From NCBI GenBank assembly GCA_947645535.1, contig CANSDD010000001.1:1-51561 (forward strand): DNA of 51,561 nucleotides. The letters run 5' to 3'. Of this stretch, positions 7,259-36,551 are shown one piece after another. Under the pieces are notes generated by a model. It was given only the letters and a program-made list of their open reading frames with translations, ran no database searches and had not been told where the DNA came from. Position 1 is the stretch's first letter. Every line of letters begins with the position of its first letter. The DNA comes from an uncultured Mycoplasmatota bacterium (lineage in GTDB: Bacteria > Bacillota_I > Bacilli_A > RF39 > UBA660). The position numbers and the translations under genes are program-made.

Positions 7259-7274
7259 ATCTCTTATTTCATTA

Positions 7275-7322
7275 AAGTATAATTTAAGATTATGAATATA
7301 ACATCTAGATTATACTTTTTTC
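7275..7322 (+). terminator. Probable terminator of the surface-protein gene
   Basis: aagtataat (7275-7283) pairs with attatactt (7309-7317), followed by a T-run. The loop is long. Confidence 0.45.
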
Positions 7323-7421
7323 TCGTTAAAGAAATAATTATGCTTCAAAATGAACCTTGTCAAAAATGATATCTATTAAATATATAAAATAAATAGATGT
7401 TTTTGCAGAAGGATTGAGATA

Positions 7422-7922: not shown

Positions 7923-8163
7923 AAGGTGTTTACTAAGTTATTTTGTAAGATAAATGAGAACAATTTAATAGTCTTACTATTTTTTTAATTTTAGTGAGAA
8001 AATGAAAGTAAGTGATAGATTTTTAAAATTCCATCTCTTTTAGAGATTTACTGCTATTACAAATTATATTTTTGTTATAATTCACACTTTTCATATAATA
8101 TTTATATTAAAATATATAAATGAAAAAAATTTAGATGTTATTTTAATGTAAAGAGAGGAAGTG

Positions 8164-8194
8164 CCTTACTATTTAGGTAGTAGGAACTTTTTTT
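8164..8194 (+). terminator. Hairpin plus T7 upstream of the ABC operon promoter
   Basis: ccttacta pairs with tagtagg (one bulge), then aac and ttttttt. Confidence 0.45.
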
Positions 8195-8249
8195 GATGCT
8201 TGTTCATTTTTACATCTTATAGTATAATAAAATAAGCAAGGAGGAAATT

Positions 8250-18756: not shown

Positions 18757-18887
18757 GAATAGAAGAGTAATATTTTCTTTTTATTGTCTTTTTTAAATAA
18801 TAGATAAATATATTAGAAAGATAGATAAAAAATAATAAAATATAGTAAATTTTTGATATAATTAATTCAAAAGATGGGGTGAAGGGA

Positions 18888-20627
18888 ATGCAGAATTATA
18901 ATTTTCATACACATACTTTTAGATGTGGTCATGCAGATTTAGTCAATGATGAAGAATATATAAAAGAATATATATCAATGGGATTTAAAAGAATCGCTTT
19001 TACTGATCATTGTCCAGAGAAAACGATAATAGATACCAGAGATAATGTTAGAATGTTATATAATGAGAAAAAAGAATATTTAACAGTTATTCAAAAATTA
19101 AAAGAAAAATATGCTAATCAAATTATTATTGAAAGCGGATTTGAAGTAGAGTATTTGCCTGGAGAAGAAGAAAATCTTAAAGAATTAAAGAAAGAAACAG
19201 ATAAGATAATTTTAGGACAACATTTTATATATGATAAAAATGGTAATCTAAAGTATTTTAGAAATCACAGTAATTTTGATAGAAAAGAATTGTTAACTTA
19301 TGTATCTTATATTGAAGAAGCTATTAAATTAGGGATTCCAGATATCATTGCCCATCCTGATGTTTATATGTTAGGAAAAGATATATTTGGTGATGCTGAA
19401 GCTGAGGTAGCACATAAGATTTGTCAAATTGCAGAAAAATATAATATTCCACTTGAAATTAACTTAGCACAAATATTTAATCATACTTATTATAAAGATA
19501 AAGTGTTAAATAATGATTCTATTGAAAAGCAAAAAGAAAGATTAAATAATGTCAGTTATCCATGTAAAAAATTTTGGGAAATAGCTTCTAATTATAATAT
19601 CAAGGTATTGTATGGGATAGATGTGCATCATAAAGGACAAATAAGTTTATTTCATAATCTAGCGACTTTGGCTAATGAAATTATTGGAGAAAGTACAATA
19701 AATAAGTTAAGATTTATTACCAATGAAGATATATTGATAGATAGTATCCCTTTCTTTTGGGAATGTACTTCTATTACTCAAGATTTAAGAGGACATTCTA
19801 CTGCATTTAGATATATTTGTGAGAAACAAAATAAAACCTATTTTGTTAAAATATATAAGAATAATAGAATAAAAGATTTAGACTATATTGAAGATGTTTA
19901 TCATAAATTAGGAGTTCCGACTGCGAAGATAATTGAAAAAAGATATTTAGAAGTATACAATAAAACTTATGCAATTTATGAATACATAGATGGAAAAACA
20001 CTAAAAGAATTAACTCAGGAATTAAGTCTAGAAGAACTTGAAATAATAGGTAAAGAGGTAGGAAACTATTTATCAAAGTTTAAGAATATATGTGGTGATA
20101 AACAAGAACTGATGAAAATATGCGATAAAGAGTTTGAAATATTGACAAAAAGTCTTTATACTATAAAAAATATTGAATGTATTGATATTGATAGAGCAGT
20201 TAAAAATTTTAATGATTTAAAAAAATATGTGTATGAGACAAATCCATCTTTCATTCATAAAGATATTAATTTAAATAATGTTATTGTGAATAATAAGAAG
20301 CCGTATTTTATTGATACTGATGGTGGTAAGGTAAGTTTTAGGACATTAGATTTTAGAGGCATTTGTTGGTGGACTTGGGATGGAGATAACAAATTAAATG
20401 AACAAGCAATGTATAGAGGAATATTTAAAGGTTTGTTTAATGATAATATACCAGATATGTTTCATAAAGAAATAGCTTTTACAATTTATTATGAATTTTT
20501 TCTCAAAATAACAGAGGCAACAAATAATAACGATGAGCAAAGAATGAAGTTTATTTTTGATAAATTTGGTAAAATATTTGATAGAACTAATTATTTTGAA
20601 GATTATAAATTTGATTGGTTTCATTAG
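18888..20627 (+). CDS. Fusion of a PHP-family (HisJ-like) phosphoesterase and an APH/choline-kinase-like phosphotransferase
   Basis: GGGGTGA lies 5 nt before ATG 18888. The N-terminus has NFHTHTFRCGHA, FTDH and IAHPD PHP motifs. The C-terminus has FIHKDINLNNVIV (HxDxxxxN) and FIDTDGG kinase motifs. Confidence 0.75.
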   Translation: MQNYNFHTHTFRCGHADLVNDEEYIKEYISMGFKRIAFTDHCPEKTIIDTRDNVRMLYNEKKEYLTVIQKLKEKYANQIIIESGFEVEYLPGEEENLKELKKETDKIILGQHFIYDKNGNLKYFRNHSNFDRKELLTYVSYIEEAIKLGIPDIIAHPDVYMLGKDIFGDAEAEVAHKICQIAEKYNIPLEINLAQIFNHTYYKDKVLNNDSIEKQKERLNNVSYPCKKFWEIASNYNIKVLYGIDVHHKGQISLFHNLATLANEIIGESTINKLRFITNEDILIDSIPFFWECTSITQDLRGHSTAFRYICEKQNKTYFVKIYKNNRIKDLDYIEDVYHKLGVPTAKIIEKRYLEVYNKTYAIYEYIDGKTLKELTQELSLEELEIIGKEVGNYLSKFKNICGDKQELMKICDKEFEILTKSLYTIKNIECIDIDRAVKNFNDLKKYVYETNPSFIHKDINLNNVIVNNKKPYFIDTDGGKVSFRTLDFRGICWWTWDGDNKLNEQAMYRGIFKGLFNDNIPDMFHKEIAFTIYYEFFLKITEATNNNDEQRMKFIFDKFGKIFDRTNYFEDYKFDWFH

Positions 20628-20862: not shown

Positions 20863-21402
20863 ATGAGTCAAAAGAAAGATATTGAATATTTAGATGTATT
20901 AGATGAATTTGGTAATATTACAGGAATAGTCAAGTCAAGAGAAGAAGCTAAAAGAGATAAAGATTATTATAGAATTGTATTTTTATGGATGTATAACCCT
21001 AAGTTAAAAAAAATACTTATTCAAAGAAGATCAATGAATAAAGAAACAGCCCCTAATAGATGGGATTTAACAGTTGGAGGGCATGTACAAGCTAGGGAAA
21101 GTAGTATAGATGCTATTATCAGAGAAACTAAAGAAGAAATAGGGATAGATATAAGTGATGATTGTATTACTAAAGTATTAGAAGTAAAACCAAATGAAAA
21201 GAAACCCAAATTCACAGATATTTATTTTGTAATCAAAGAAGTAGATATTGATGATATTAAATTACAACTAGAAGAAGTATCAGAAGTTAAATACGTTTCT
21301 TTGGATGAGCTTGTTGAAATATATAGAAATGATAATCCAGATTTTATAAATCATTCTTTTTTTCCTGAATTGATAGATATAGTTAGTAAATTAATAAAAT
21401 AA
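20863..21402 (+). CDS. Nudix hydrolase
   Basis: Nudix box GGHVQARESSIDAIIRETKEEIGI. Confidence 0.85.
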   Translation: MSQKKDIEYLDVLDEFGNITGIVKSREEAKRDKDYYRIVFLWMYNPKLKKILIQRRSMNKETAPNRWDLTVGGHVQARESSIDAIIRETKEEIGIDISDDCITKVLEVKPNEKKPKFTDIYFVIKEVDIDDIKLQLEEVSEVKYVSLDELVEIYRNDNPDFINHSFFPELIDIVSKLIK

Positions 21403-21479
21403 AAAAAGATATTATAAGAACAATACAGGAAACATAAATAGCATATTTATTATATTCCAAAGAAAAAATATAAAATTTA

Positions 21480-21511
21480 AAAGATTTTTCAGTAAGAAGA
21501 ATCTTTTTTTT
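21480..21511 (+). terminator. Intrinsic terminator
   Basis: aaagatt pairs with aatcttt, followed by T8. Confidence 0.6.
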
Positions 21512-21586
21512 GAAAAAAAATCACTTAATTTTTCCTTTAAAAATAACACTTTTACAAAATGTTATTAAAAAAATGTTAAAAAGTTG

Positions 21587-21615
21587 TTGACAAATTCATC
21601 TCTTTTTAATATACT
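21587..21615 (+). promoter_or_regulatory. Sigma-A type promoter TTGACA-17-TATACT of the first NAD operon
   Basis: TTGACA at 21587-21592, a 17-nt spacer, then TATACT at 21610-21615. Confidence 0.6.
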
Positions 21616-21622
21616 GTTATTA

Positions 21623-21640
21623 ACAGAAAGGCCAATCTGT
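21623..21640 (+). promoter_or_regulatory. Palindrome ACAGA-N8-TCTGT just downstream of the -10; candidate operator or leader hairpin
   Basis: acagaaaggccaatctgt sits 8 nt after the -10 element. No regulator could be assigned. Confidence 0.3.
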
Positions 21641-21691
21641 ATAATTTTTAAATCCAGATATTAACAAAAAATTAAAAAGAGGTGATGGAAG

Positions 21692-22243
21692 ATGAGTAAA
21701 GAAGAATGGATAATATATCGAAATTGGATAGAGTTTACAAAAAATCAAAAAGAAATTTCTTTAGGAAATATAAAATCATTACAAGAATTTATAAAAATAT
21801 TAGAAGGATTACAATTAGATCTTTCTATTGATAGTTGTGCCAATGTAGAAAAGACAATATTTTATATTATAGAACCACATTATGTGAAAAAATATAATGG
21901 TTATATTAAAGAAAATGAAGGAAAATTATGGATAGATGATTATGAACTTGTAGAACAGATTCCTTATACTTTCAGAAAAGAAGTTTCTAATGGAAGAGAT
22001 GAAGATGGAGATTATGATAATCCATATGATGCCATTCTTACATCTCTCTTAGAAGATAATGCTTATCTTATAAATGGGCTAGATAAAAATAATATCTATC
22101 GTTATTTAGAAAAAGATATAGATGGTAAATATATGCCTATTTTAGAAGTGAATCATTATTTAAAAATAAGAAGACAAAAGCAAATAACAAATAAGGTAGC
22201 AAAAGTCTACCAATTATTAAACACAAGTGTTATTAACATTTGA
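21692..22243 (+). CDS. Hypothetical 183-aa protein, first gene of the NAD operon
   Basis: GAGGTGA RBS. No motif recognised. An acidic patch (RDEDGDYDNPYD) is present. Confidence 0.6.
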   Translation: MSKEEWIIYRNWIEFTKNQKEISLGNIKSLQEFIKILEGLQLDLSIDSCANVEKTIFYIIEPHYVKKYNGYIKENEGKLWIDDYELVEQIPYTFRKEVSNGRDEDGDYDNPYDAILTSLLEDNAYLINGLDKNNIYRYLEKDIDGKYMPILEVNHYLKIRRQKQITNKVAKVYQLLNTSVINI

Positions 22244-22265
22244 ATAAAAAGAAAGAGGAGATAAA

Positions 22266-22934
22266 ATGAAAAAGAAATTAGTTGTAGTTGTTGATATGGT
22301 AAATGGATTTGTAAATATAGGTGCATTACATGATAAGTATATCAATCATATTGTACCTGGAATAAGAAAGATGATTGAAGAGAATTTAGAGCTTAAAAAT
22401 GATGTGATAGATTTTAGAGATTGTCATAGTCTTACAGATGAAGAATTTAAAGCATATCCAGTTCATTGCTTAGATGGAACAATTGAGAGTGAATTAGTAC
22501 CAGAATTAAAACCATTGGCACACTACATGATAGATATTCCTAAAAATACAACAAATGGTTTTAATACAGAAAAGTTTAGGAAATTTTACGAAGAACATTA
22601 TGATGAGTATGATGAAGTAATTGTAGTAGGATGTTGTACTGATATTTGTGTAACAGACTTTACAACGTCTTTAATAGATTTCCAGAAAGAGAATGGGATC
22701 AATACTCGGGTTACTGTTCCTATGAATTTAGTAGAAACATTTGATGGTCCAGGACATAATCGAAAGACAATGAATGAAATTGGATTTGAAAAAATGCGAA
22801 AAGCAGGAGCAAATATCGTAAGAGAATATGGAGAAGAATTTGGGTTTTGGAATTTACAAGAATCCGAAAATAATCCAGAAAATAAATGTGAAAAAGTCAA
22901 ACAAAAACAATATGTATTAAGGAAAGAAGGATAA
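22266..22934 (+). CDS. pncA: Nicotinamidase (isochorismatase-like hydrolase)
   Basis: Catalytic Asp (VVDMVNGF), Lys (PKNTTNGF) and Cys (GCCTDICV), a metal site (DCHS..YPVHC), and a following DGTIESEL motif. Confidence 0.85.
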   Translation: MKKKLVVVVDMVNGFVNIGALHDKYINHIVPGIRKMIEENLELKNDVIDFRDCHSLTDEEFKAYPVHCLDGTIESELVPELKPLAHYMIDIPKNTTNGFNTEKFRKFYEEHYDEYDEVIVVGCCTDICVTDFTTSLIDFQKENGINTRVTVPMNLVETFDGPGHNRKTMNEIGFEKMRKAGANIVREYGEEFGFWNLQESENNPENKCEKVKQKQYVLRKEG

Positions 22935-22936
22935 AT

Positions 22937-23338
22937 ATGAGATTATTATTTAGTAAATCAGAAACAATAGAATTATTAGAATTATATTATCGTGAAATAG
23001 AAAACGCTGATGTAACAGTAAACATATCTGCTAAGTCTGCTCATTTAGGATATGGCATGGCAGAATATGATGGATGTTTAGTTACTATTAAAGTAAAAGG
23101 AACAATGTCATTACTTGGGAAAGAACGTTCATTTGAAAAAGAATTATCAAATAAAGAAGTTACTTCTATGATAACAATAGTATTAGAAAGAGCTGGAATG
23201 GAAGTTTCTTCAGTAGAGATGAATTCAGGAAACAAATCCATAACAGAGGGATATGGAATGGGTGAAAGAACAGTTTCTAGGGCCTATTTCAATGGAATTA
23301 TTATTGAAGCAGAAAAAAAATTAGAGAAAGTTAGATAA
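22937..23338 (+). CDS. Hypothetical 133-aa protein embedded between pncA and pncB
   Basis: It starts 2 nt after the pncA stop and has a GAAGGA RBS. The GYGMxE motif is duplicated internally. Confidence 0.6.
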   Translation: MRLLFSKSETIELLELYYREIENADVTVNISAKSAHLGYGMAEYDGCLVTIKVKGTMSLLGKERSFEKELSNKEVTSMITIVLERAGMEVSSVEMNSGNKSITEGYGMGERTVSRAYFNGIIIEAEKKLEKVR

Positions 23339-23358
23339 ATTAAGAAAGAGGGATAAAT

Positions 23359-24819
23359 ATGAAAATTAATGAAATTATGTCAACCGATCGTTATGAATTT
23401 ACAATGGCAAGTGGATACTTTGAAGAAGAAATGAAAGATAAAATAGCTTATTTTGATATTTTTCTTAGAAGAAATCCGCTACAGAATGGTTATACCATTA
23501 TGGCAGGATTAGATCAAATAATAGATACAGTCAAAAACATTCACTTTGAAGAAGAAGATGTAGAATATTTTAGGAATCAAGGAATTTATAGTGAAAAATT
23601 CTTAAGTTATTTAAGAAATTTTAAATTTGAAGGAGATATTTATGCAATAGAGAATGGAACTCCAATATTTCCAAATGAACCAGTAATTACAGTAAGAGCA
23701 AATTTAATAGAATCACAAATTTTAGAAACGATATTATTAAGTCACTTTAATAGTAGTTCATTAGTAGCAACAGCTACAAAAAGAATTGTATTAGAAGCAG
23801 GAAAACCAGTTATGGCATTTGGTACAAGAAGATGCCATAGTAAAGCAGCAATCGATGCTGATAAAAATGCTTACATGGCAGGATGTTGTGGAAGTTCTAA
23901 TGAAGCTACTGGAAAATATTATGGTGTGCCAACACTTGGTACAATGGCACATTCTTGGGTTACTGCTTTTGATACAGAATATGAAGCATTCTTGAAATAT
24001 GCGAAACGTCATCCAAATAATACTGTATTTTTAGTAGATACTTATGATGTACTTAGAAGTGGTATTCCGAATGCAATTAAAGTAGCAAACGACTACTTAA
24101 AACCAAATGGACTTCCATTTAAAGGAATTCGTATTGATAGTGGAGATTTAGCCTACCTTTCAAAAGAAGCAAGACGTATGTTAGATGAAGCAGGATATCC
24201 TGATGCTACTATTTGTTTATCAAATGGGCTTACAGCAGAAGCAATTAGAGATTTAAATATGCAAGGAGCGAAAGTGGATTCTTATGGAGTAGGTGATAAT
24301 ATCTCTTATCCTTTAGATCGAGTAGGTGGCGTATATAAATTAGTAGCCATAGAAGAAAATGGAAAAATTATTCCAAAAATAAAAGTAAGTCAAGATGAGA
24401 TTAAAACCATTAATCCTGGAGTTAAAAAAGTATATCGTTTTTATGACAAAAAAACAGGGTATGCACTTGGAGATGTTGTTGCTCTATCACATGAATTAAT
24501 TCCGAAGGATACATTTACTTTAGTAGATCCTACAGATACTTGGAAGAGAACAACCATTAAAGATTATGAAATAAGAGAATTACAAGTACCTATCTTCAAA
24601 GGTGGAGAATTAGTATATGATGTCCCTACATTAAAGGAAAGTAGAGATTATTGTACACGAGAGATGGATACATTATATGAAGAAGTAAAAAGAATTGAAA
24701 AACCACATAAATATTATGTTGATTTAACACTAGAATTATTAAAACTAAAAAAAGAATTGATTGTTAGTACGACAGAAAAAACAGTTCCAAAAGAAAAGAA
24801 GATAGGTGGCTTATGGTAA
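23359..24819 (+). CDS. pncB: Nicotinate phosphoribosyltransferase
   Basis: The N-terminal TDRYEFTMASGYF, FGTRR and GTMAHSWV segments are typical of NAPRTases. About 486 aa. Confidence 0.9.
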   Translation: MKINEIMSTDRYEFTMASGYFEEEMKDKIAYFDIFLRRNPLQNGYTIMAGLDQIIDTVKNIHFEEEDVEYFRNQGIYSEKFLSYLRNFKFEGDIYAIENGTPIFPNEPVITVRANLIESQILETILLSHFNSSSLVATATKRIVLEAGKPVMAFGTRRCHSKAAIDADKNAYMAGCCGSSNEATGKYYGVPTLGTMAHSWVTAFDTEYEAFLKYAKRHPNNTVFLVDTYDVLRSGIPNAIKVANDYLKPNGLPFKGIRIDSGDLAYLSKEARRMLDEAGYPDATICLSNGLTAEAIRDLNMQGAKVDSYGVGDNISYPLDRVGGVYKLVAIEENGKIIPKIKVSQDEIKTINPGVKKVYRFYDKKTGYALGDVVALSHELIPKDTFTLVDPTDTWKRTTIKDYEIRELQVPIFKGGELVYDVPTLKESRDYCTREMDTLYEEVKRIEKPHKYYVDLTLELLKLKKELIVSTTEKTVPKEKKIGGLW

Positions 24820-25430
24820 GAAGAGAAAAATTAGAAGAATTAAAAAGTTATATTGAAGAGTTAAAAATCATTAAAATGGAAACATTAGATACTTCAAAGC
24901 AAAAAGAAATATTAGATAGTCCATCATTCTTGAGTTTTACCAAACATCGTTATTATTTAAATAACGGAAAGGTAATGACAAGAGAATTACTTCATAAACA
25001 AGGAGGAAACGGAAATGCAGCTCTTGTACTTCCAATTACTGAAGATGGAAATTGTATTCTTACAGTAGAACCAAGACTTGGAGCTACTAGAACTGTTGCT
25101 GTAGGTTTGCCTGCTGGCTATGTAGAGAGAAGGGAAGAAGCGCTAAAAGCAGCGATTCGGGAATTACAAGAAGAAACTGGATATGTTTGTAGAAACTATT
25201 ACTTGCTTGCTAAATATTATCAAGATCCAGGTATTAGTCAGGCCTATAATTATGCTTACTTAGGAACAGAGGCAAAAAAGGTAGGAAAGCAAAAACTAGA
25301 TTCTGAAGAATTTATTCGTTATTTTGAATGTACTTACAAAGAAGCATTAGAATTAGTAGATTTAGGCTATATAGAAGATGTACAAGCACAGCTTGCTTTA
25401 GAAAAAGCAAAACAATATATATTAAAATAA
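24813..25430 (+). CDS. ADP-ribose pyrophosphatase-type Nudix hydrolase
   Basis: AGGTGG RBS and a 7-nt overlap with pncB. Nudix box PAGYVERREEALKAAIRELQEETGY. The overall layout resembles B. subtilis NudF. Confidence 0.8.
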   Translation: MVRREKLEELKSYIEELKIIKMETLDTSKQKEILDSPSFLSFTKHRYYLNNGKVMTRELLHKQGGNGNAALVLPITEDGNCILTVEPRLGATRTVAVGLPAGYVERREEALKAAIRELQEETGYVCRNYYLLAKYYQDPGISQAYNYAYLGTEAKKVGKQKLDSEEFIRYFECTYKEALELVDLGYIEDVQAQLALEKAKQYILK

Positions 25431-25487
25431 AGGAGATAAAATTATGCTAAAAAATGTTGTCTTATGAATATGCTGAGAAAACAATAG

Positions 25488-25514
25488 AAGAATAAGCTAT
25501 TTATGCTTATTCTT
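25488..25514 (+). terminator. Hairpin between the two NAD operons
   Basis: aagaataagc pairs with gcttattctt (10 bp). The T-tract is weak. Confidence 0.45.
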
Positions 25515-25524
25515 AATAACTATA

Positions 25525-25559
25525 AATGTTACTTATAATAGTCATTATTTTTAGATATT
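25525..25559 (+). repeat. Copy A of a shared ~35-nt intergenic motif
   Basis: AATGTTACTTAT, then 3 nt, then AGTCATTATTTT. The same two 12-mers recur in the same order at 33855-33884. Confidence 0.55.
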
Positions 25560-25630
25560 ATACTTTTGTTAAAAAGTAGAATATAATGAATATAGAAACG
25601 AAGAAGAAAGTTTCAAAGGAGGAATGGAAT

Positions 25631-26389
25631 ATGAAATTTGATGCTAAATGCGAAAAAGAAAGAATTGTTTCTTTTATTAGAAATTATTACAAAGAAAATA
25701 ACTTAGGTGGAGCAATCCTTGGAATTAGTGGTGGAAAAGATAGTGGAGTTGTTGCTGGACTATTTGTAGAAGCTTTAGGAAGTGAAAATGTAATTGGAGT
25801 AACACTTCCATGTCATTCAGTAGAAACTGATAGAAATGATGCCAAATTAGTAAGTGATTATTATAACTTTCCACTTTACAATTTTGATTTAACAGGAGTA
25901 TTTAATGAATTTAAAACGGAATTAGAAAAAATTGGAACATTTACAGAGGAAGAAGCTAAAGATAGTGATATTAACTTAAAACCACGTCTTAGAATGTCTA
26001 CATTATATTATTTAGCTGCTTTATTTTCTAAAGTAAATGGAAAAACTTATTTAGTAGCAGGTACTAGTAATAAATGTGAACTTTATGTAGGATATTTTAC
26101 TAAGGGCGGAGATAGTGTACATGATATTTTGCCACTTGCTGATTTTACAGTAGATGAAGTGATTGCTTTAGGAGAAGAATTACATGTCCCAGAACCTGTT
26201 TTATATAAAGCTCCAAATGATGGCTTGTCTAATAAAACAGATGAAGATAAATTAGGAGTAACTTATAAAGCAATTGCAGATTATATGGAAAATCCTAATT
26301 CTGTATCAGAGCAAGACAGAAAAACAATAGAAAGATTACATAAAAATAATGCTCATAAATTTAATATCCCAACGTATAGGAGAGAATAA
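25631..26389 (+). CDS. nadE: NH3-dependent NAD+ synthetase
   Basis: AGGAGG RBS before ATG 25631. PP-loop GISGGKDSGV. About 252 aa. Confidence 0.9.
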   Translation: MKFDAKCEKERIVSFIRNYYKENNLGGAILGISGGKDSGVVAGLFVEALGSENVIGVTLPCHSVETDRNDAKLVSDYYNFPLYNFDLTGVFNEFKTELEKIGTFTEEEAKDSDINLKPRLRMSTLYYLAALFSKVNGKTYLVAGTSNKCELYVGYFTKGGDSVHDILPLADFTVDEVIALGEELHVPEPVLYKAPNDGLSNKTDEDKLGVTYKAIADYMENPNSVSEQDRKTIERLHKNNAHKFNIPTYRRE

Positions 26390-26390
26390 T

Positions 26391-27179
26391 ATGAAAAAAG
26401 TAAGACTATTTGTAAATGAAAATGAAAAATCAAGGGAAACTGCAAATGAATTAACAGAACTACTTTATTCTCGTGGATTTACCATAACAGAAGAAAACTA
26501 TGAAATTGCAATTTCAATTGGAGGGGATGGTGCTTTCCTTAGAATGGTAAAAGAAACGGATTTTGATCCTAGTATTTATTATATTGGAATCCATACAGGT
26601 ACATTAGGCTTTTTACCAGAAGTACTACCAAATGAATTAAAAGAATTTGTTTCTTATTTAGAATATGGTGATTACAAAGTGAATGAAGTAGGAGTATTAG
26701 AAACAATAGTAGAATGTAAAAAAGATAGTAAACATTTTATTTCATTAAATGAAATTGTTGTTCGTGATTCTTTACTAAATAGTCTTACGCTAGATATTAA
26801 ATTAGAAAATGAGTTATTAGAACGTTTCAAAGGAGATGGAATGTTAGTATCTACTTCTATTGGTTCTACTGCTTATAATTTATCATTTGGAGGAAGTATG
26901 GTTTATTTTAAACTACACACACTCCAATTAACACCAATTGCACCTTTTAATAGTAATAGTTATCGAAATTTGCAAAATTCAGTTATCATTCCAGAATATG
27001 TTCCTATTGAGATGATGCCAGTAGAAAAAAATGATTTATTGTTAACAATAGATGGAGAAAATCACTATATAAAAGGTGTAACAAAGATTAATACAAAAGT
27101 TGGTAATAAAAAAATAAAACGATTACGTTATCATAATGTTCCATTTAGTAAAATTATTAAAGAAAAGTTTTTAGGGTAG
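26391..27179 (+). CDS. nadK: NAD kinase
   Basis: GGDGAFL, NEIVV and GDGMLVSTSIGSTAYNLSFGG motifs. It starts 1 nt after the nadE stop. Confidence 0.9.
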   Translation: MKKVRLFVNENEKSRETANELTELLYSRGFTITEENYEIAISIGGDGAFLRMVKETDFDPSIYYIGIHTGTLGFLPEVLPNELKEFVSYLEYGDYKVNEVGVLETIVECKKDSKHFISLNEIVVRDSLLNSLTLDIKLENELLERFKGDGMLVSTSIGSTAYNLSFGGSMVYFKLHTLQLTPIAPFNSNSYRNLQNSVIIPEYVPIEMMPVEKNDLLLTIDGENHYIKGVTKINTKVGNKKIKRLRYHNVPFSKIIKEKFLG

Positions 27180-27187
27180 GTGAAAAG

Positions 27188-27766
27188 ATGAAAATTGGTA
27201 TATTTGGAGGAAGTTTTAATCCTCCACATAAAATGCATGAGAGAATGGCAAGAGAATTGATTCAAAAAAAGATTTTGGATAAAATAATTTTTGTTCCAAC
27301 AGGAAATAAGTATCAAAAAAAAGAACTGATAGATGGAGAATATAGACTTGCTATGTTAAATATTATTGCTTCTAAATATTCATCTTTTAATGTATCTGAC
27401 TTTGAATTAAAAAATGAACTTACTTACACTTATCAAACACTTGAATATTTTAAAGAAAAGTATCCAAATGATGAGATATATTTTATATTAGGTGCTGATA
27501 ATTTATCAGATATTAAAAATTGGAAAAATTATGAATATTTGTTAGAACATTATTATTTTGTCGTAATCAATAGAGGAAATGCTAAAATGAAACTGTTAGA
27601 AGAATACAAAGATTATGAAAGTCATATTGTTTTTGCGCCAATAGCTCAAGATTCCCTTTCTTCGACACAAATTCGCTATTGGTTAAAAAATCATGAAGAG
27701 CATGCATTGCTAGAATTAGATGGTGATGTACTTGAGTATATCAAGAAAAATAAATTATATGAGTAA
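27188..27766 (+). CDS. nadD: Nicotinate-nucleotide adenylyltransferase
   Basis: The GIFGGSFNPPHKMH (H/T)xGH-type motif and a C-terminal SSTQIR motif. Confidence 0.9.
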   Translation: MKIGIFGGSFNPPHKMHERMARELIQKKILDKIIFVPTGNKYQKKELIDGEYRLAMLNIIASKYSSFNVSDFELKNELTYTYQTLEYFKEKYPNDEIYFILGADNLSDIKNWKNYEYLLEHYYFVVINRGNAKMKLLEEYKDYESHIVFAPIAQDSLSSTQIRYWLKNHEEHALLELDGDVLEYIKKNKLYE

Positions 27767-27819
27767 AAATTATGGATTATTTTTAAAAGAGTATGATAAG
27801 ATAAAATAGAGGTGTTAAT

Positions 27820-28302
27820 ATGTTAGAAAAAGCAGAAAAAGTAGTAAAATTGTTAATAGAAAGAAAAGAACAAATAGCAACTATGGAGTCTTGTACTGGA
27901 GGCGGACTTGCAAATATGATAACCAATATTTCAGGAGCAAGTGAGGTGTTGCTGTTTAGTGCTATAACTTACTCTAATGAATATAAAATTAAAATGGGAG
28001 TACCAGCAGAAACAATCGATGAATTTACCGTTTATAGTATGGAAACTGCTACTGAAATGGCCAAAACAATCTCTTTCTTTGCGCGTTCTGATTATGGAGT
28101 AGGTATTACAGGAAAACTAAAGCGAAGTGATCCAAATAATATTACAGAAAATGATGATTTGGTCTATTTTGCTATCTATGACCAAAAGAATAATTGTTGT
28201 TATACAGACTCTTTATATGTAACAAAAGATGAACGATATCAAAATAAAGATATGGTAATAGAGAAAATATTAGAAAGTTTAGAAGAAATATTAAATAAAT
28301 AA
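27820..28302 (+). CDS. pncC: CinA C-terminal domain protein / nicotinamide-nucleotide amidase
   Basis: The ATMESCTGGGLANMITNISGAS motif of the CinA-C/PncC family. 160 aa, stand-alone. Confidence 0.8.
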   Translation: MLEKAEKVVKLLIERKEQIATMESCTGGGLANMITNISGASEVLLFSAITYSNEYKIKMGVPAETIDEFTVYSMETATEMAKTISFFARSDYGVGITGKLKRSDPNNITENDDLVYFAIYDQKNNCCYTDSLYVTKDERYQNKDMVIEKILESLEEILNK

Positions 28303-28330
28303 AATGAAAAAATTTGTAAATAATAATAAA

Positions 28331-28367
28331 AAAAACTGTTAGAAGTTATATGAACTAACAGTTTTTT
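28331..28367. terminator. Bidirectional terminator
   Basis: An A-run, ctgttag (28336-28342) pairing with ctaacag (28355-28361), then T6. Confidence 0.7.
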
Positions 28368-28843: not shown

Positions 28844-30730
28844 ATGAATAATCCAATACTAAAAATTGTAATGATGCCATTGTTGATGGTGAAATGGTGC
28901 TGTTTAGGATTCTTTTTTACTATGTGGTTTTTTATTTCTTGTGTCGTAACAGGAATTACATTTGTATCGTATGGTGTTTATCGTGTTGTGAAAGTGATTG
29001 CAGGGATAGTTGGAAAAATTATTATTTATCCGTCGCTTTTGATTTACAAAATTATCAGTTTCCCTTTTAGGGCGATATCTGGAACTTCTGGTAAAAGTGC
29101 TGAGCAAATCCAAGCTCAAAAAGAACAGAGAAAAGTAGAACAAGCTCAAAAATTAGAGGCTAAAAAGTTAGAAAAAGCAAAAGCATTACAAGAAAAACAT
29201 GCTAGGATAGAAAAAGAAAAAGCAGAAAAAGCAAGAATTACAGAAGAACGAGAAAAATTGAAAAAACGCTCAAATGAATCTTATGTTAACGAAAATGCTA
29301 AACGTGAAAAGAAAACTATGGGTGAAAAAATCAATGATGCACTAGTGCATATGGGACAAACACCTAAGAGAATGGTGCAAAATACAAAAAAACGTTGGAA
29401 TAATTTAACGTTTGTCAAAAACGCAAGAAATAAAAAAGATATCAATAGACAAGCTTTATTAATCAACTTTGAAGGTGAAGATGCAAAAAAATCCGATAAA
29501 AAGCTGATGTATCAATATGAAGGTAAAAATGCAGATGGAAAAGTTGTAAGAGGATACTTTGAAGCATATTCAAAAGTAGAAGTTCATTCCTTCTTATTAA
29601 GTGAAGGGTTTGAAGTATATAGTATTAAAACCAATAAATTGATACAATTATTACATAGTAATGCTGCAGGTAGTACAGTAAAAGTAAAAACAAAAGATTT
29701 AATTTTCTTTTTAACACAATTATCAACTTATATAAAAGCTGGTATTCCATTAGTAGATGCTCTTAAAATATTGACAAAACAATTTAAAAACAAAACATAT
29801 CAACGTATTTTTAGAGCTATGGTTTATGATTTGACAATGGGAGAGAGTTTCTCATCAGCATTAGAAAAACAAGGTACTGCTTTCCCTAGATTACTTATCA
29901 ATATGGTGAAAGCTTCAGAAATGACTGGTGAACTACCAGAAGCACTTGATGATATGGCAGATTATTATACTGAATCAGAAAGAACTAGAAAACAAATGAT
30001 TAGTGCAATGATGTATCCTAGTATTGTATTCGTTGTTGCAGTAGCAGTAGTGACATTTATTCTTTTATATGTTGTTCCTAAATTTGTAGATATTTATAAG
30101 ACAATGGATGAAAGTTCAATTCCAGGTTATACAAGATTTGTATTAAGTGTTAGTGATTTCTTACAAAATCATTTTATGTGGATATTAGTTGGAATTATTA
30201 TAACAATATTGGTGTTAAAATACTTATATGCTAATGTTAAAGTAATTCGTACAATGTTGCAATGGATTATCATGCATCTTCCTGTATTTGGAAATGTTAT
30301 CATTTATAACGAAGTTACAATGTTTACAAAAACTTTTAGTTCTTTATTAGCGCATAATGTATTTATTACAGATAGTATGGAAGTATTAAATAAAATTACA
30401 AATAATGAAATATTTAAAATGTTAATATTAGATACAATTACAAACTTAGCTAAAGGTGAAAAGATATCTGAAGCATTTAAAGATCAATGGGCTTTCCCTC
30501 TACCAGCATATGAGATGATAGTAACTGGTGAGAGAACAGGACAATTAGCAGAAATGATGGCAAAAGTATCTAGTTATTATCAAGATTTACATGCAAATGC
30601 AGTAACAAGAATCAAGGCTTTCTTAGAGCCAGCACTTATTGTTTCATTAACAGTTGTTGTTGGGTTTATCGTATTAGCAGTTGTTATACCAATGTTTAGT
30701 ATGTATGATTTAATTCAAACAGGAGTATAG
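28844..30730 (+). CDS. pilC: Type IV pilus / T2SS platform protein (GspF/PilC/ComGB family) with a ~200-aa N-terminal extension
   Basis: Two T2SSF-type repeats (LTQLSTYIKAGIPLVDAL.. and FTKTFSSLLAHNVFITDSM..). The canonical N-domain starts near YQYEGKNADGKVVRGYFEA, at about aa 222. Total length is 628 aa. Confidence 0.85.
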   Translation: MNNPILKIVMMPLLMVKWCCLGFFFTMWFFISCVVTGITFVSYGVYRVVKVIAGIVGKIIIYPSLLIYKIISFPFRAISGTSGKSAEQIQAQKEQRKVEQAQKLEAKKLEKAKALQEKHARIEKEKAEKARITEEREKLKKRSNESYVNENAKREKKTMGEKINDALVHMGQTPKRMVQNTKKRWNNLTFVKNARNKKDINRQALLINFEGEDAKKSDKKLMYQYEGKNADGKVVRGYFEAYSKVEVHSFLLSEGFEVYSIKTNKLIQLLHSNAAGSTVKVKTKDLIFFLTQLSTYIKAGIPLVDALKILTKQFKNKTYQRIFRAMVYDLTMGESFSSALEKQGTAFPRLLINMVKASEMTGELPEALDDMADYYTESERTRKQMISAMMYPSIVFVVAVAVVTFILLYVVPKFVDIYKTMDESSIPGYTRFVLSVSDFLQNHFMWILVGIIITILVLKYLYANVKVIRTMLQWIIMHLPVFGNVIIYNEVTMFTKTFSSLLAHNVFITDSMEVLNKITNNEIFKMLILDTITNLAKGEKISEAFKDQWAFPLPAYEMIVTGERTGQLAEMMAKVSSYYQDLHANAVTRIKAFLEPALIVSLTVVVGFIVLAVVIPMFSMYDLIQTGV

Positions 30731-30751
30731 AGACGTAGAGGAGTAGATAAA

Positions 30752-31528
30752 ATGGAAATATATTATATGATTACATTCTTTATATTAGGAACTATCTTTG
30801 GTTCCTTCTATAATGTTGTTGGATATCGCTTACCGAAGGGAGAATCAATTATGTTTCCTCCTTCGCATTGTACCAATTGCAATCATAGGTTAGGACCATT
30901 AGAATTAATTCCTATTGTCTCTTTTTTTATACAAGGAAGAAAGTGTAAAAGCTGTCATCAAAAAATATCATGGTTTTATTCATTCTTTGAATTTAGTTGT
31001 GGGGGGTTATTTGCTTTATCTTACTTAATTTTTGGTTTATCATTAGATTTGCTAATTGCTTTAACATTTATATCTATGCTTTCTATTATTGTATTAAGTG
31101 ATTATGAATATATGATTATTCCAGATGAAGTTCTTATCTTTTTTGGAATTACACTTATTATAGAGTTTTTCTTTAAAGATGGATTGCAAGCTACAGGGAT
31201 GCATATTTTAAGTGGAATGCTTGCTTTCTTTACGATGTGGGGAATAAAAAAGCTTGGAGATTTATTATTTAAGAAAGAGTCAATGGGTGGAGGAGATATA
31301 AAGCTAATGTTTGTCTTTGGTTTAGTATTAGGTTATCCACTTGCAATTTTATCTATTTTTTTAGGATCTATTATAGGGCTTCCTATTTCACTGATTATGG
31401 TATCTAAAAATTCAAATCACGAAATACCATTTGGACCTTTTTTAAGTATTGGTGCATTAGTTCTATTTTTATTGCAGATTGATTTTAATAATTTAATAGA
31501 TGCCATGAATTATTTAAATATATTTTAA
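30752..31528 (+). CDS. pilD: Prepilin peptidase (A24 family)
   Basis: An N-terminal Cys-rich CxxC..CxxC segment, the GGGDIKL active-site motif, and multiple TM helices. Confidence 0.9.
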   Translation: MEIYYMITFFILGTIFGSFYNVVGYRLPKGESIMFPPSHCTNCNHRLGPLELIPIVSFFIQGRKCKSCHQKISWFYSFFEFSCGGLFALSYLIFGLSLDLLIALTFISMLSIIVLSDYEYMIIPDEVLIFFGITLIIEFFFKDGLQATGMHILSGMLAFFTMWGIKKLGDLLFKKESMGGGDIKLMFVFGLVLGYPLAILSIFLGSIIGLPISLIMVSKNSNHEIPFGPFLSIGALVLFLLQIDFNNLIDAMNYLNIF

Positions 31529-31558
31529 AAAGTGCGTATTTGCACTTTTTTCTTTTTT
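31527..31558 (+). terminator. Intrinsic terminator of pilC-pilD
   Basis: aaaagtgc pairs with gcactttt, followed by a T-rich tail. Confidence 0.7.
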
Positions 31559-31594
31559 CTGCTATAATAATCACTCGAAAGAAGGGGAAATATT

Positions 31595-32440
31595 ATGGAA
31601 TTAAAAAAAATAGTTTTAGAAGAAGAAGCCGAAATTATTAGAAAAGGAGATAATGAAGAAGCTTTTGCGAATCTTCAAGAAGCAGAAATTTATTTAAAAA
31701 ATTTAATCAATAATAGAGATCATTATATCGAAAGTAAGTTTAAAAGAAAAATAGGTGAGGGTTCTTATTGGAGATCGATTGCGGTTATAATTCTAGCTCT
31801 TGTTGGAGCTATAGCTGGTTTGGACTACGCGGATTTTAACCAGATTAGCTTGATACAAGGTAGTTTACTTGGAGTAGGAATACCTTGCACACCAATCGTA
31901 CTATATGATGGCTTGAAAAGATTTTTTTCAAAACGAAATGCAGTCAAAGAAGTAGATTCTGATATTAATGCATTAAAAGTAAAATGTGGATATGTCAATG
32001 AAGATGAAACAGTATTAGAAGAAATTAAAACAGTAGCAAAAAAATCTGAAGTAGCAACTACAACAGTAGATACCTTTATTGCGAATATACGTGATGATGT
32101 ATATAGAATTACAAATACTAGATATCCAGGTTGTGAACAAGATTTAAAAGAACTTTGTACATTAGCAGAGGATTATTTAGAATTTAAAAGAAAACTTGGT
32201 ACTACTAGCGATTCATATGCGTTAGCGCAAAACTCTAGTTATTTTGATCGATTATTGACAATAGAATCGAGAATTACACAAAATGAAAAAGTAAAAAGAG
32301 ATCAAGAAGCAAATATGCAAGTAATAGATAAAATAAAAGAAGAATTACAAAAAGAGAGAATGAGTTTAGCGCAGATAAAGGAACCTACAGAAAAAGAAAC
32401 AAAAAATAATAATCCACAGTTAACATTAGGAGGTAAATAA
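31595..32440 (+). CDS. Hypothetical membrane protein with a coiled-coil C-terminal domain
   Basis: AAGGGG RBS, a TGcTATAAT promoter just upstream, and two hydrophobic segments (WRSIAVIILALVGAIAGL, LIQGSLLGVGIPCTPIVL). Confidence 0.6.
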   Translation: MELKKIVLEEEAEIIRKGDNEEAFANLQEAEIYLKNLINNRDHYIESKFKRKIGEGSYWRSIAVIILALVGAIAGLDYADFNQISLIQGSLLGVGIPCTPIVLYDGLKRFFSKRNAVKEVDSDINALKVKCGYVNEDETVLEEIKTVAKKSEVATTTVDTFIANIRDDVYRITNTRYPGCEQDLKELCTLAEDYLEFKRKLGTTSDSYALAQNSSYFDRLLTIESRITQNEKVKRDQEANMQVIDKIKEELQKERMSLAQIKEPTEKETKNNNPQLTLGGK

Positions 32441-32454
32441 TAATACCTCTTTTT
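32430..32454 (+). terminator. Intrinsic terminator
   Basis: gaggta pairs with tacctc, followed by T5. Confidence 0.6.
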
Positions 32455-32541
32455 GATGTGATTATTATTAAATTTATAATTTTTATTGTATAATTTATGT
32501 ATAAGAGATTTTACGATTAGAATTAAAGATGGAGGTAAGTA

Positions 32542-32950
32542 ATGGATAATAAATTACTTAAAGAGGAAAATAAATAATATATTCATCAATATCAACGAAT
32601 TCGTTATTACCAGTAGAAGTAAGGTTTATAGTGCTGTGAATACTGAAATATTGGAAAAGTGATAATGGAAATTCAAAAGGGTGATGAAAAAGCAAGTTAT
32701 GGGGATGAGGTTTTAGAAAAATTATCACAAAAATTGACTGAGGAATTTGGTAAAGGTTTTTCTAAAAGAAATTTAGAAAGAATGAGAAAGTTTTATATAA
32801 ATGAAACAATTAATTCTAGATGGAGTGTTAGAGAACTTCAAAGACAAAGAGATTCGCTTATTGTATGAAAGACTATCATTATCTGCTGATAAAGAAAAAA
32901 GATTGCGAGTAATTTTCGAATACAAAACAATTGAAGCGATAGTATTTTAG
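32542..32950 (+). pseudogene. Degraded N-terminal fragment of a YhcG/DUF1016-family (PDDEXK nuclease) gene
   Basis: GGAGGT RBS and ATG 32542. Family-typical segments are spread over three frames: SRSKVYSAVNTEIL, QKGDEKASYGDEVLEKLSQKLTEEFGKGFSKRNLERMRKFY, WSVRELQRQ and LLYERLSLSADKE. Part of the interior and the whole nuclease domain are missing. Confidence 0.7.
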
Positions 32951-33055
32951 ATATAATATTTTTATATTATTAAGTATACTGATTGGTATATTTGATTTTT
33001 TATTATCAAAGTATATAATAAATTTTAGTTTGGTGATATAATTAAATATGCAGTA

Positions 33056-33589
33056 TTGGAACTGAAAAAAAGAGGTGGTTGGTCAGTAGGATATGAAGAT
33101 ATTACGCAAGGTTTTATAGTTTCAAAATGTTACGTGATGGAGAGTAATATAGTATATCATTCTGATGGAAGTAATGAAATAACTCATAAAGTAGTATTCC
33201 CTTTTGAAAATATTTCGTGTTTTGGAGCGAATGATAGGCAAATTTTAGGTAATGAAAATATACCTTATTACGATGCTTGCAATAACCCAAGGCCAGTTAA
33301 TGTAGTTACAAATTTATTTGATTCATATGAAGAAGCGAAAATTGTTGCCGAAGAAAGAAATGGAAAACTAAAAAATAATTTAATATTTGAAGTGGAAATG
33401 TCAGAACCAGATTGGAAGGAAACGTTAGAAAAATTAGAAAAAAAATTTGATAAAAGATTGGAATTATGTTATTTATTCGAACAATTAGTATTAGAAAAAA
33501 CTAGCGATATGAAAATAAGCAAACAATTATCTACTAGTGGACAAAAAAACTTTGTGAAAATTTTAGAACCAATGAGAAAGCAAGTATAA
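33056..33589 (+). CDS. Orphan hypothetical protein
   Basis: TTG start without an SD, and TGaTATAAT at 33034-33042. No motif recognised, and the start is uncertain. Confidence 0.4.
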   Translation: MELKKRGGWSVGYEDITQGFIVSKCYVMESNIVYHSDGSNEITHKVVFPFENISCFGANDRQILGNENIPYYDACNNPRPVNVVTNLFDSYEEAKIVAEERNGKLKNNLIFEVEMSEPDWKETLEKLEKKFDKRLELCYLFEQLVLEKTSDMKISKQLSTSGQKNFVKILEPMRKQV

Positions 33590-33608
33590 TTTTGATTAAA
33601 TTCAGGAT

Positions 33609-33636
33609 AAATTTATCAACTAACAAAAAAATAAGC
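33609..33636 (+). repeat. Direct repeat, left copy (AAATTTATCA[A/T]CTAACAAAAA)
   Basis: It matches 33902-33927 at 20 of the first 21 positions and again in the final aagc. Confidence 0.45.
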
Positions 33637-33671
33637 CGCGGCATAATATTTGATAAAGGTAGTGATGTGTC

Positions 33672-33767
33672 ATGACAAGGAAACCAAAAGAATTAATGAA
33701 AATAATAGAATTATTTGGCGAAGAAGATTTTATAGAAGAGAAAGAAGAATTACCAATAAATGCATAA
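33672..33767 (+). CDS. Possible 31-aa acidic mini-protein
   Basis: ATG 33672 gives MTRKPKELMKIIELFGEEDFIEEKEELPINA. The stop lies in the loop of a 13-bp terminator hairpin. The SD is weak. Confidence 0.3.
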   Translation: MTRKPKELMKIIELFGEEDFIEEKEELPINA

Positions 33768-33784
33768 TTTATTGGTAATTTTTA
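33749..33784 (+). terminator. Strong hairpin terminator
   Basis: attaccaataaat pairs with atttattggtaat (13 bp), followed by a T-run. Confidence 0.65.
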
Positions 33785-33854
33785 TGAAAATACAAGTTAT
33801 ATTGTAGACATCAGAAAAGAAACATCTGTCAAGTAAATTTTAAATATTTGTAAT

Positions 33855-33890
33855 AATGTTACTTATTATCTTAGTCATTATTTTAGTATT
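33855..33890 (+). repeat. Copy B of the shared ~35-nt intergenic motif
   Basis: AATGTTACTTAT, then 6 nt, then AGTCATTATTTT. See copy A at 25525-25559. Confidence 0.55.
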
Positions 33891-33901
33891 TTTGAAGTAT
33901 G

Positions 33902-33927
33902 AAATTTATCATCTAACAAAAACAAGC
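33902..33927 (+). repeat. Direct repeat, right copy
   Basis: See 33609-33636. Confidence 0.45.
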
Positions 33928-33960
33928 ACTTTAATTATTTGTAATGCAGTATATTGTAAA

Positions 33961-33983
33961 GAAAAAGAATGCATTTGCATTCT
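33961..33983 (-). terminator. Terminator of pilB
   Basis: agaatgc pairs with gcattct and overlaps the TAG stop. There is a T-run on the minus strand. Confidence 0.6.
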
Positions 33984-36044: not shown

Positions 36045-36551
36045 ATGAAGAATAATAAAGGTTTTACACTAATAGAGTTAATTGCATCTTTTACATTAGC
36101 TCTCATTATTATGTTTTTCTTATTTCAAATAGTTATTGTTGTGAAAGAATTGTATGTATCTTCTGGGCTAAAAACAGAAATGATGATAAAAAAGTCTAAT
36201 ATAGAGAAGCAAATAGGATTAGATTTTAACACATTGGAAATTACAAAGATAGTAGCTTGTGGAACTGATTGCTATACATTTACTTATAGTGATTCTAGTA
36301 CGAAAATATTAAAAGTAGATAGGGCAAATAAGACCATTATTTATGGAGATTATCAAATGACAATGATGGATGGTAGTTCTATTGGCGAATATAAGATTAC
36401 GCAAAACACAGTATCAGGAGTAGGAACAGGAAAAAATAATACTATTTTAATTATTGAAATTCCTGTAACCAACAAGGTAATTGCTGATAGAAACTTTGGA
36501 ATACGTATGGTTTATCAATATGATAATAGAACTAAAAATCTTGGTTTATAA
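36045..36551 (+). CDS. Prepilin-type N-terminal cleavage/methylation domain protein
   Basis: GAGGTGA RBS. The canonical NKGFTLIELIASFTLALII motif is present. Confidence 0.8.
   Translation: MKNNKGFTLIELIASFTLALIIMFFLFQIVIVVKELYVSSGLKTEMMIKKSNIEKQIGLDFNTLEITKIVACGTDCYTFTYSDSSTKILKVDRANKTIIYGDYQMTMMDGSSIGEYKITQNTVSGVGTGKNNTILIIEIPVTNKVIADRNFGIRMVYQYDNRTKNLGL

Follow-up and report, generated by a model that had tools for sequence, protein, structure and literature searches.

The stretch of DNA analysed here is a 51,561-nucleotide sequence from an uncultured Mycoplasmatota bacterium (contig CANSDD010000001.1; in the following, the window). Nine co-directional open reading frames (ORFs) on its + strand, spanning positions 21692-28302, form a cluster of ~6.8 kb for the salvage and recycling of nicotinamide adenine dinucleotide and its phosphate, NAD(P). 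An initial annotation had counted ten genes in this cluster and had considered their consolidation unexplained. Only nine genes are present, and every related locus examined has this multi-enzyme cluster as well (related loci are designated by L numbers where they have to be told apart). In Bacillus subtilis, the NAD genes lie scattered at several loci. As a system, the cluster belongs to an established type, the NAD salvage regulon under operator control, of which it is an unusually complete representative. Its consolidation is common to the lineage and not new; the new elements are the family of the small protein orf133 and a lineage-specific operator motif. The genes of the cluster and the hairpins that follow them are:

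21692-22243, + strand: orf183, fast-evolving and lineage-specific
22266-22934, + strand: pncA-like gene for an isochorismatase-family amidase (PF00857, E 2e-18)
22937-23338, + strand: orf133, member of an uncharacterised family of ~135 aa
23359-24819, + strand: pncB, nicotinate phosphoribosyltransferase (NAPRTase; NF006695, 589 bits, cutoff 469; three NAPRTase Pfam domains)
24813-25430, + strand: Nudix hydrolase of the ADP-ribose pyrophosphatase type (NudF/ACT-like), 205 aa (PF00293; PDB matches)
25488-25514: hairpin between the Nudix gene and nadE (10-bp stem, z -2.9; T-run on the minus strand only)
25631-26389 (alternative start 25586), + strand: nadE, NH3-dependent NAD synthetase (TIGR00552, 172.7 bits, cutoff 63.65)
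26391-27179, + strand: nadK, NAD kinase (PF01513 and PF20143; NF003424, 189 bits)
27188-27766, + strand: nadD, nicotinate mononucleotide (NaMN) adenylyltransferase (TIGR00482, 153 bits, cutoff 112)
27820-28302, + strand: pncC, nicotinamide mononucleotide (NMN) deamidase, a stand-alone CinA C-terminal domain (PF02464, E 8e-30; TIGR00199, 85 bits, cutoff 68.9)
28330-28367: bidirectional intrinsic terminator consisting of A-run, 13-bp stem and T-run (-12.3 kcal/mol on either strand, z -3.3 and -5.6)

Most of the enzyme assignments made earlier were confirmed: pncB, nadE, nadD and pncC score above their curated cutoffs, nadK is recognised by both Pfam domains, and the Nudix protein is closest to ADP-ribose (ADPR) pyrophosphatases. 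Its matches in the PDB are ADPR pyrophosphatases (8wv3, 9jax, 5c7q and 1v8i, E 2e-14 to 8e-8), and its Nudix box, GYVERREEALKAAIRELQEETGY, is intact and fits the pattern GX5EX7REUXEEXGU; its scores lie below the NCBIfam equivalog cutoffs. The name pncA could be retained only in part. The encoded protein reaches only the generic isochorismatase Pfam model, with 17.7 bits for the PncA model NF008623 against a cutoff of 174, and its nearest solved structures, 3hb7 and 3eef, are uncharacterised members of the isochorismatase family. Comparing 11 cluster-encoded homologs, in contrast, showed that the triad D10/K93/C128 as well as H54 and H67 are invariant and that position 52 is always D or E. Because the protein falls far below the PncA cutoff and yet keeps the triad and the D/E-x-H...H metal pattern, we regard it as a probable, not a proven, nicotinamidase. 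In several related clusters, PncB is ~100 aa longer (581-584 aa) than the 486 aa in the window, as in L014:8062-9807, L016:4122-5876, L025:1360-3111 and L027:3132-4880.

These gene identities agree with the module proposed by the initial annotation, a consolidated Preiss-Handler salvage and recycling pathway from nicotinamide, NMN and ADPR. They support the sequence nicotinamide to nicotinate, NaMN, nicotinate adenine dinucleotide, NAD and NADP, together with the conversions of NMN to NaMN and of ADPR to AMP and ribose 5-phosphate. As also annotated before, the de novo enzymes NadA, NadB and NadC were not found among the 30 window ORFs scanned.

A purine-rich Shine-Dalgarno sequence (SD) precedes each of the nine cluster genes. 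The junction spacings were reproduced as described earlier, with gaps of 22 nt between orf183 and pncA, 2 nt between pncA and orf133 and 20 nt between orf133 and pncB, an overlap of 7 nt (-7) between pncB and the Nudix gene, and gaps of 1, 8 and 53 nt for nadE-nadK, nadK-nadD and nadD-pncC. The closing bidirectional terminator was likewise recovered. The hairpin in the middle of the cluster is real, but the division into two operons that had been drawn at it is not established because the hairpin has no U-tract on the + strand, and it is not a convincing + strand terminator. For nadE, the start at 25631 is most likely the better one, with an AAGGAGG SD and a product of 252 aa that matches the calls in relatives.

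The most informative non-coding feature of the cluster, unmentioned by the initial annotation, is a set of regulatory palindromes. They share a palindromic 23-bp consensus, GTTATTAAyAwaaTGTTAATAAC, which has CA-N3-TG at its core (in search-pattern form, GTTATTAAYANNNTGTTAATAAC). A position weight matrix (PWM) trained only on loci outside the window revealed seven window sites at or above the threshold of 9 bits, against 1.2 ± 1.0 expected, and five of these lie inside the 6.8-kb cluster. Together with the promoter and a hairpin in the leader, they are arranged as follows:

21561-21583: operator copy 0, GTTATTAAAAAAATGTTAAAAAG, directly before the -35 box (20.7 bits)
21587-21615, + strand: sigma-70-type promoter TTGACA-17-TATACT (11/12 match, best of the region)
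21602-21624: operator copy 1, with the -10 box in the middle of its palindrome (15.6 bits)
21623-21640, + strand: short hairpin ACAGA-N8-TCTGT where the transcript is predicted to begin (21623-21627 pairs with 21636-21640)
21657-21679: operator copy 2, abutting the orf183 SD (17.2 bits)
22229-22251: operator copy 3, which includes the stop codon of orf183 and lies shortly before the pncA SD (16.9 bits)
25554-25576: weak site resembling the operator, in the conserved leader of nadE (11.2 bits)

The two remaining PWM matches are weak and lie outside the cluster, at 10045-10067 (9.6 bits) and, inside a coding ORF, at 36222-36244 (12.7 bits); their number is at chance level.

The promoter had already been proposed from the sequence. 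The sigma-70 scan as a whole was not enriched over shuffles (57 found, 55.6 expected), and the reality of this promoter rests on the -35/-10 layout, which is kept in 11 related loci. A constant arrangement was observed in at least 11 loci, comprising a TTGACA -35 box, a palindrome centred on a TATAAT -10 box, a hairpin of 5-7 bp, another palindrome at the SD of the first gene and further palindrome copies directly before pncA or pncB. The position of copy 0 is also occupied in L008, L018 and L023, and copy 1 is near-perfect in relatives (GTTATTAATATAATGTTAATAAC, 26-28 bits). A site at the position of copy 2 relative to the SD of the first gene was present in all related loci. Copy 3 has an equivalent in L008 at 9351-9373, and other loci carry internal sites 5' of pncA or pncB. 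Because the copies upstream of the -35 box and over the -10 box lie outside the transcript, the palindrome is best read as a DNA operator for a dimeric repressor.

Promoter and leader are near-identical in the window and in L008, a locus from a metagenome-assembled genome (MAG) of an uncultured Bacilli species, though the orf183 proteins of the two share only 33-34% identity. The leader hairpin is paired in nine of nine loci, with both sides changed in two of its five pairs. It is thermodynamically weak (-4.1 kcal/mol, z -0.4), and we assign it, with low confidence, as a stem-loop at the 5' terminus of the mRNA. Covariance models detected no NAD-related RNA element (NAD+ riboswitch classes) in the leader; the region 21400-21800 gave no relevant Rfam match even at E<=10, and the only gathering-score match of the window was a tRNA. 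Further downstream, ~75 nt 5' of nadE (25515-25630 in the window compared with L008:14650-14725) are conserved despite differing upstream genes, the Nudix gene in the window and a radical S-adenosylmethionine (SAM) block in L008. Since a TATAAT box and the weak operator-like site fall within this stretch, nadE-nadK-nadD-pncC may have a regulated promoter or leader of their own.

As stated before, orf183 and orf133 cannot be placed in curated families: searches of Pfam, NCBIfam, PHROGs and PADLOC returned no match for either protein, for orf183 even at E<=1 in Pfam, and the best PDB sequence match of orf183 had an E of 0.29. The database entries of both, derived from a MAG, read 'hypothetical protein [Bacilli bacterium]'. 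A word-indexed search yielded only four close clusters of orf133. By exhaustive profile search, the family comprises 138 representatives at E<=1e-3 (71 at E<=1e-10), nearly all of 130-140 aa and all metagenomic, with names that are absent or again 'hypothetical protein [Bacilli bacterium]'. No Pfam family was shared among 74 family members, and the longer matches contained no domain fusions, only tail extensions or spurious repeat proteins.

The genomic association of orf133 is strong. All 12 distinct related loci, whose orf133 proteins are 24-61% identical to that of the window, place the gene in an NAD salvage operon under operator control; 11 of them have it beside or near pncA/pncB, in two different gene orders. 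The orf133-pncA junctions are short or overlapping in most loci, whichever gene comes first. In the remaining locus, L018, orf133 is the first gene of a Prs-nadD-pnuC-nadR operon, so that the family is tied to the regulated salvage module and not strictly to PncA. The related loci were found through orf133 itself; a scan of GTDB species genomes with patterns from a narrow alignment returned one species only, the L008 MAG, and a metagenome scan with a six-sequence alignment returned seven loci. The co-occurrence of both ORFs with pncA/pncB that the initial annotation had suggested was therefore borne out for the orf133 family, down to 24% identity, but not for orf183, which occurs only in the cluster of the closest relative. 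We conclude that orf133 is an integral, conserved part of the salvage module and represents an uncharacterised family.

An AlphaFold2 (AF2) model of orf133 (predicted local distance difference test, pLDDT, 85; predicted template modelling score, pTM, 0.73) displays the order beta-alpha-beta-beta twice. Its two halves are homologous (hhalign 93.5%, E 2.4e-7), indicating an internal duplication, and each carries a GYGMxE motif at the hairpin turn. Residues Y17, Y18, G105, Y106, E110, Y117, F118 and G120 are near-invariant, and the family is acidic (median isoelectric point, pI, 5.7) with a basic C-terminal tail (median +3). The topology presumably recalls the tandem beta-alpha-beta-beta 'SHS2'-type binding domains of small molecules, such as GyrI/SbmC and the BmrR C-terminal domain; the predicted orf133 structure shares with them the twofold order with pseudo-symmetry, and its conserved residues are aromatic and acidic, as in pockets for cationic aromatic ligands. 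Membership is not supported: SHS2-type proteins were absent from the Foldseek matches of orf133 in the PDB (best E 0.025, template modelling score, TM, <0.3), and there was no profile match. One repeat of orf133 (~residues 70-127) resembles phrog_20484 and its member from Bacillus phage Shanette, the 67-aa protein S5MB08 (Foldseek probability 1.0, target TM 0.56, 31% identity over 64 columns, E 0.019; PHROG E 0.078). The resemblance to S5MB08 adds no functional information. From the conserved aromatic and carboxylate residues and the gene coupling, we tentatively suggest that orf133 could bind a pyridine ligand and serve the first steps of salvage as an accessory or regulatory partner, a possibility to which we give clearly less than even weight.

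In contrast to orf133, orf183 forms only one 98% cluster among 5.8 billion proteins. Its single homolog in another species is a 226-aa protein at the same position in L008 (33-34% identity, E 4e-22), and no homolog was detected in any other related locus. Comparing the window with L008, identity is 33% for orf183, 61% for orf133 and 68-84% for the enzymes, and within the species orf183 shows one synonymous and four non-synonymous differences. A single-sequence AF2 model was unusable (pLDDT 36). The gene is flanked by the operator copies at 21657-21679 and 22229-22251, as if it had been inserted into an ancestral leader. Judged from its sequence and distribution, orf183 appears to be a real but lineage-specific passenger with an unproven link to NAD, and it is probably not a core pathway component. 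Other loci carry embedded ORFs as well, namely a 133-aa ORF with an operator copy 5' of it at L019:2145-2546, and a 15-aa upstream ORF together with ORFs of 72 and 70 aa within the operon at L022:5706-6608 (and its equivalent in L021). The embedded ORFs of different loci showed no relatedness to each other, and these operons seem to accumulate lineage-specific genes.

Neither orf133 nor orf183 had relatives in IMG/VR contigs or in 50,697 phage genomes (searched by tblastn for orf133). An NAD system for anti-phage defence or counter-defence was rejected, with generic Nudix matches as the only PADLOC result and no viral relatives of either ORF.

The explanation we favour, and consider somewhat probable overall, is a chromosomal NAD(P) salvage and recycling regulon of one uncultured gut bacterium of the Bacilli, probably under an NrtR-type repressor, with orf133 as an accessory protein and orf183 as a passenger. 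One strong promoter would drive orf183, the probable nicotinamidase, orf133, PncB and the ADPR pyrophosphatase, and nadE-nadK-nadD-pncC would be reached by read-through and/or from a second, weak promoter. A dimeric repressor is predicted to bind the 23-bp palindrome, with four copies at the promoter and leader and before orf183 and pncA and one weak copy before nadE. We infer that this repressor is most likely of the NrtR type and ADPR-responsive, as relatives encode NrtR in the same operon. Consumption of NAD would yield ADPR and nicotinamide, ADPR would release the repressor, and the operon would then restore NAD and NADP, starting from nicotinamide and NMN, with the Nudix enzyme meanwhile degrading the inducer. 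In this scheme, orf133 may be a small soluble protein holding a pyridine ligand in a pocket of Y17, Y18, Y106, Y117, F118, E43 and E110 and may act with the first salvage enzymes, to which its tight coupling to pncA in most loci would correspond, and orf183 would be a lineage-specific insertion into the operon leader. What the analysis shows directly is the gene content, the enrichment and layout of the operator, the size of the orf133 family, its synteny, the internal duplication and the evolutionary rates; the identity and effector of the repressor, the way orf133 works and the operon boundaries are inferences.

The known NrtR systems are close to this cluster in several respects. Published NrtR regulons comprise nrtR, pncA, pncB, nadD and nadE, likewise clustered, with palindromic sites that overlap promoters or occupy the interval from promoter to start codon, a further site within the operon 5' of pncB, and relief of binding by ADPR (PMC2330246). 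The five sites of the window cluster are placed in this way, some at the promoter, others close to an SD and one 5' of nadE, and nrtR is encoded within the operon also in relatives of the window. The window cluster is more complete, additionally containing nadK, pncC and the ADPR pyrophosphatase, whereas it has no nrtR within 51 kb and its orf133 family and orf183 are not part of described NrtR regulons. Its operator also differs, with 23 bp and a CA-N3-TG core compared with a 21-bp palindrome and a GT-N7-AC core for NrtR, a motif that is strongly lineage-variable (PMC2330246). The NiaR (YrxA) regulon of B. subtilis has the same enzymology, with PncA/PncB, NadD, NadE, NAD kinase, a CinA/PncC-type deamidase and NudF, and likewise a repressor palindrome overlapping the -10 box; its type I sites have a TGT-N4-ACA core unlike the window operator (PMC2330245). 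A niaR gene was not seen in the clusters examined.

Several findings weigh against the favoured explanation. No nrtR was found in the 51.5-kb window (tblastn with the L008 NrtR, best E 1.0), several related clusters are also without it, the operator core departs from the published NrtR core, and the ACA/TGT signature is typical of NiaR sites too. Because the loci were found via orf133, an association of the operator with orf133 is inseparable from one with NrtR. On the side of orf133, the AF2 model was built from only five sequences, Foldseek gave no match at E<=0.001 (best E 0.025 in the PDB and 0.0086 in BFVD, with a query TM of at most 0.4), ligand binding finds no support from structural or sequence neighbours, and L018 shows that the protein is not strictly tied to PncA. 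It is nonetheless NrtR, with its Nudix and WHD_NrtR domains, that is encoded within the operon in L008, L014, L015 and L023/L024, and no gene for a NiaR-like or other transcription factor besides NrtR was seen in the clusters inspected. NrtR is thus the most likely regulator and the leading candidate, not a demonstrated one. The same evidence makes it unlikely that the operator belongs to another regulator, such as NiaR/YrxA or a further factor, with the NrtR genes of the relatives being regulated cargo or acting elsewhere. The ACA-N3-TGT core resembles the NiaR signatures TGT-N4-ACA and ACA-N5-TGT, and both the poor fit to the NrtR core and the clusters without nrtR nearby speak for this reading, but NrtR motifs are documented as highly lineage-variable and NrtR is the sole regulator repeatedly encoded within these operons. 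Control at the RNA level, in which the leader (the 5' hairpin and the SD-abutting palindromes forming AU-rich hairpins) would act like a riboswitch or as a protein-bound translational operator, appears very improbable. The hairpin is kept with compensatory changes and a loop of varying length, many operator copies abut SDs directly, also inside the operon, and the leader is far more conserved than orf183, all of which would suit an RNA element. In contrast, the best copies are perfect palindromes over the -10 box or 5' of the -35 box, both outside the transcript; Rfam was empty, the hairpin is thermodynamically insignificant, and the stems are short and AU-rich.

The repressor could also be sought in orf133 itself, as a DNA-binding regulator or co-regulator whose pseudo-dimer, with two long beta-hairpin arms, would read the 9-bp sub-palindromes GTTAnTAAC and replace or assist NrtR. 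We consider this decidedly improbable, although no operator-bearing locus lacks orf133 and only ~5 of 13 (counting the window) encode NrtR in-cluster, orf133 is usually the first gene after the operator, and its twofold internal pseudo-symmetry and basic tail would fit such a role. Its acidic character and its near-invariant Tyr, Phe, Gly, Met and Glu are not those of a DNA reader, for which Arg, Lys, Asn and Gln would be typical. The best match of the family profile among PDB sequences, to the DNA-binding C-terminal domain of T4 MotA, is not significant (E 0.36), and Foldseek returned no DNA-binding fold. Moreover, the complete co-occurrence of orf133 with the operator arises by construction from the way the loci were selected, and NrtR regulons of this gene content are already established (PMC2330246). 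Also quite unlikely, if less so, is a wider role in which the orf133 family would sense a pyridine ligand and control the pathway directly, through an allosteric partnership with PncA/PncB or, where nrtR is not beside the cluster (as in the window), as the effector-sensing co-regulator at the operator, with orf183 and the other embedded ORFs as fast-evolving modulators recruited to an ADPR-induced NAD-recovery operon. A far stronger contender, to which we assign not quite even chances, is that neither ORF has a functional connection to its neighbours and that both are hitch-hikers, small genes of a lineage-specific or selfish kind that entered a strongly expressed operon and whose NAD context is uninformative. 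This would readily account for orf183, which is found in two species, evolves fast and is flanked by operator copies, and for the unrelated ORFs that other loci hold at similar places (133 aa in L019; 72, 70 and 15 aa in L022). For orf133, synteny largely refutes it, as the association is conserved over ~24-61% identity and two gene orders and the NAD context is kept even where Prs-nadD-pnuC-nadR replace pncA/pncB.

The enzymes of Preiss-Handler salvage in bacteria are considered to be completely known. An additional protein that is conserved and accompanies pncA/pncB, or the regulated salvage operon in general, throughout an uncultured lineage points to an accessory, sensing or regulatory function that is still missing from this picture. 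Since it is small, soluble and confidently modelled and has clear candidate ligands, the orf133 family is directly testable. The gut Bacilli lineage is probably niacin-dependent, and the new operator motif and regulon architecture are relevant to cross-feeding of vitamin B3 in the gut and to recovery from NAD-depleting stress.

Radical-SAM genes recur in related operator-controlled NAD salvage operons; the window has none. They lie at L008:12481-14588, L014:11144-12031, L015:12607-13913, L016:2199-2948 and 6536-8348, L018:4114-5414, L022:10859-11638, L025:3773-5585 and L027:5544-7356. In L016, L025 and L027 they are accompanied by a gene resembling flavin mononucleotide (FMN) reductase, in L018 by a 131-aa protein ending in ...SSGCGGGGSSRSGC, and in L008 by a 146-aa methyltransferase-like fragment and a 39-aa ORF.

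The window has ~26% G+C, and nearly all of its genes are on the + strand. Acyltransferases, an AMP-binding enzyme, a PHP-APH fusion, a second Nudix protein, type IV pilus proteins, a sortase, SpoIVB and MnmA are encoded around the cluster, which indicates a chromosomal Firmicute context. Two genes 5' of the cluster, at 18879-20627, lies the PHP-APH gene, whose 582-aa product fuses a PHP (histidinol-phosphatase-like) domain to an APH/choline-kinase-type phosphotransferase and which keeps this position in contigs of the same species. Directly 5' of the cluster, at 20863-21402, is the second Nudix gene, encoding 179 aa of the YfcD/IDI-like type, which is absent from L008 and has a weak PADLOC match (PDC-S07) through its Nudix domain. 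This protein was rejected as an NrtR, with neither a winged-helix domain nor similarity to NrtR. A stem followed by a T-run at ~21470-21500 resembles a terminator belonging to this Nudix gene. Immediately downstream of the cluster, at 28844-35433, are type IV pilus or competence-type genes, with a PilC-like T2SSF protein that bears a long N-terminal extension, a prepilin peptidase and a PilB-like ATPase on the minus strand. SpoIVB, at 46356-47354, suggests a spore-former.

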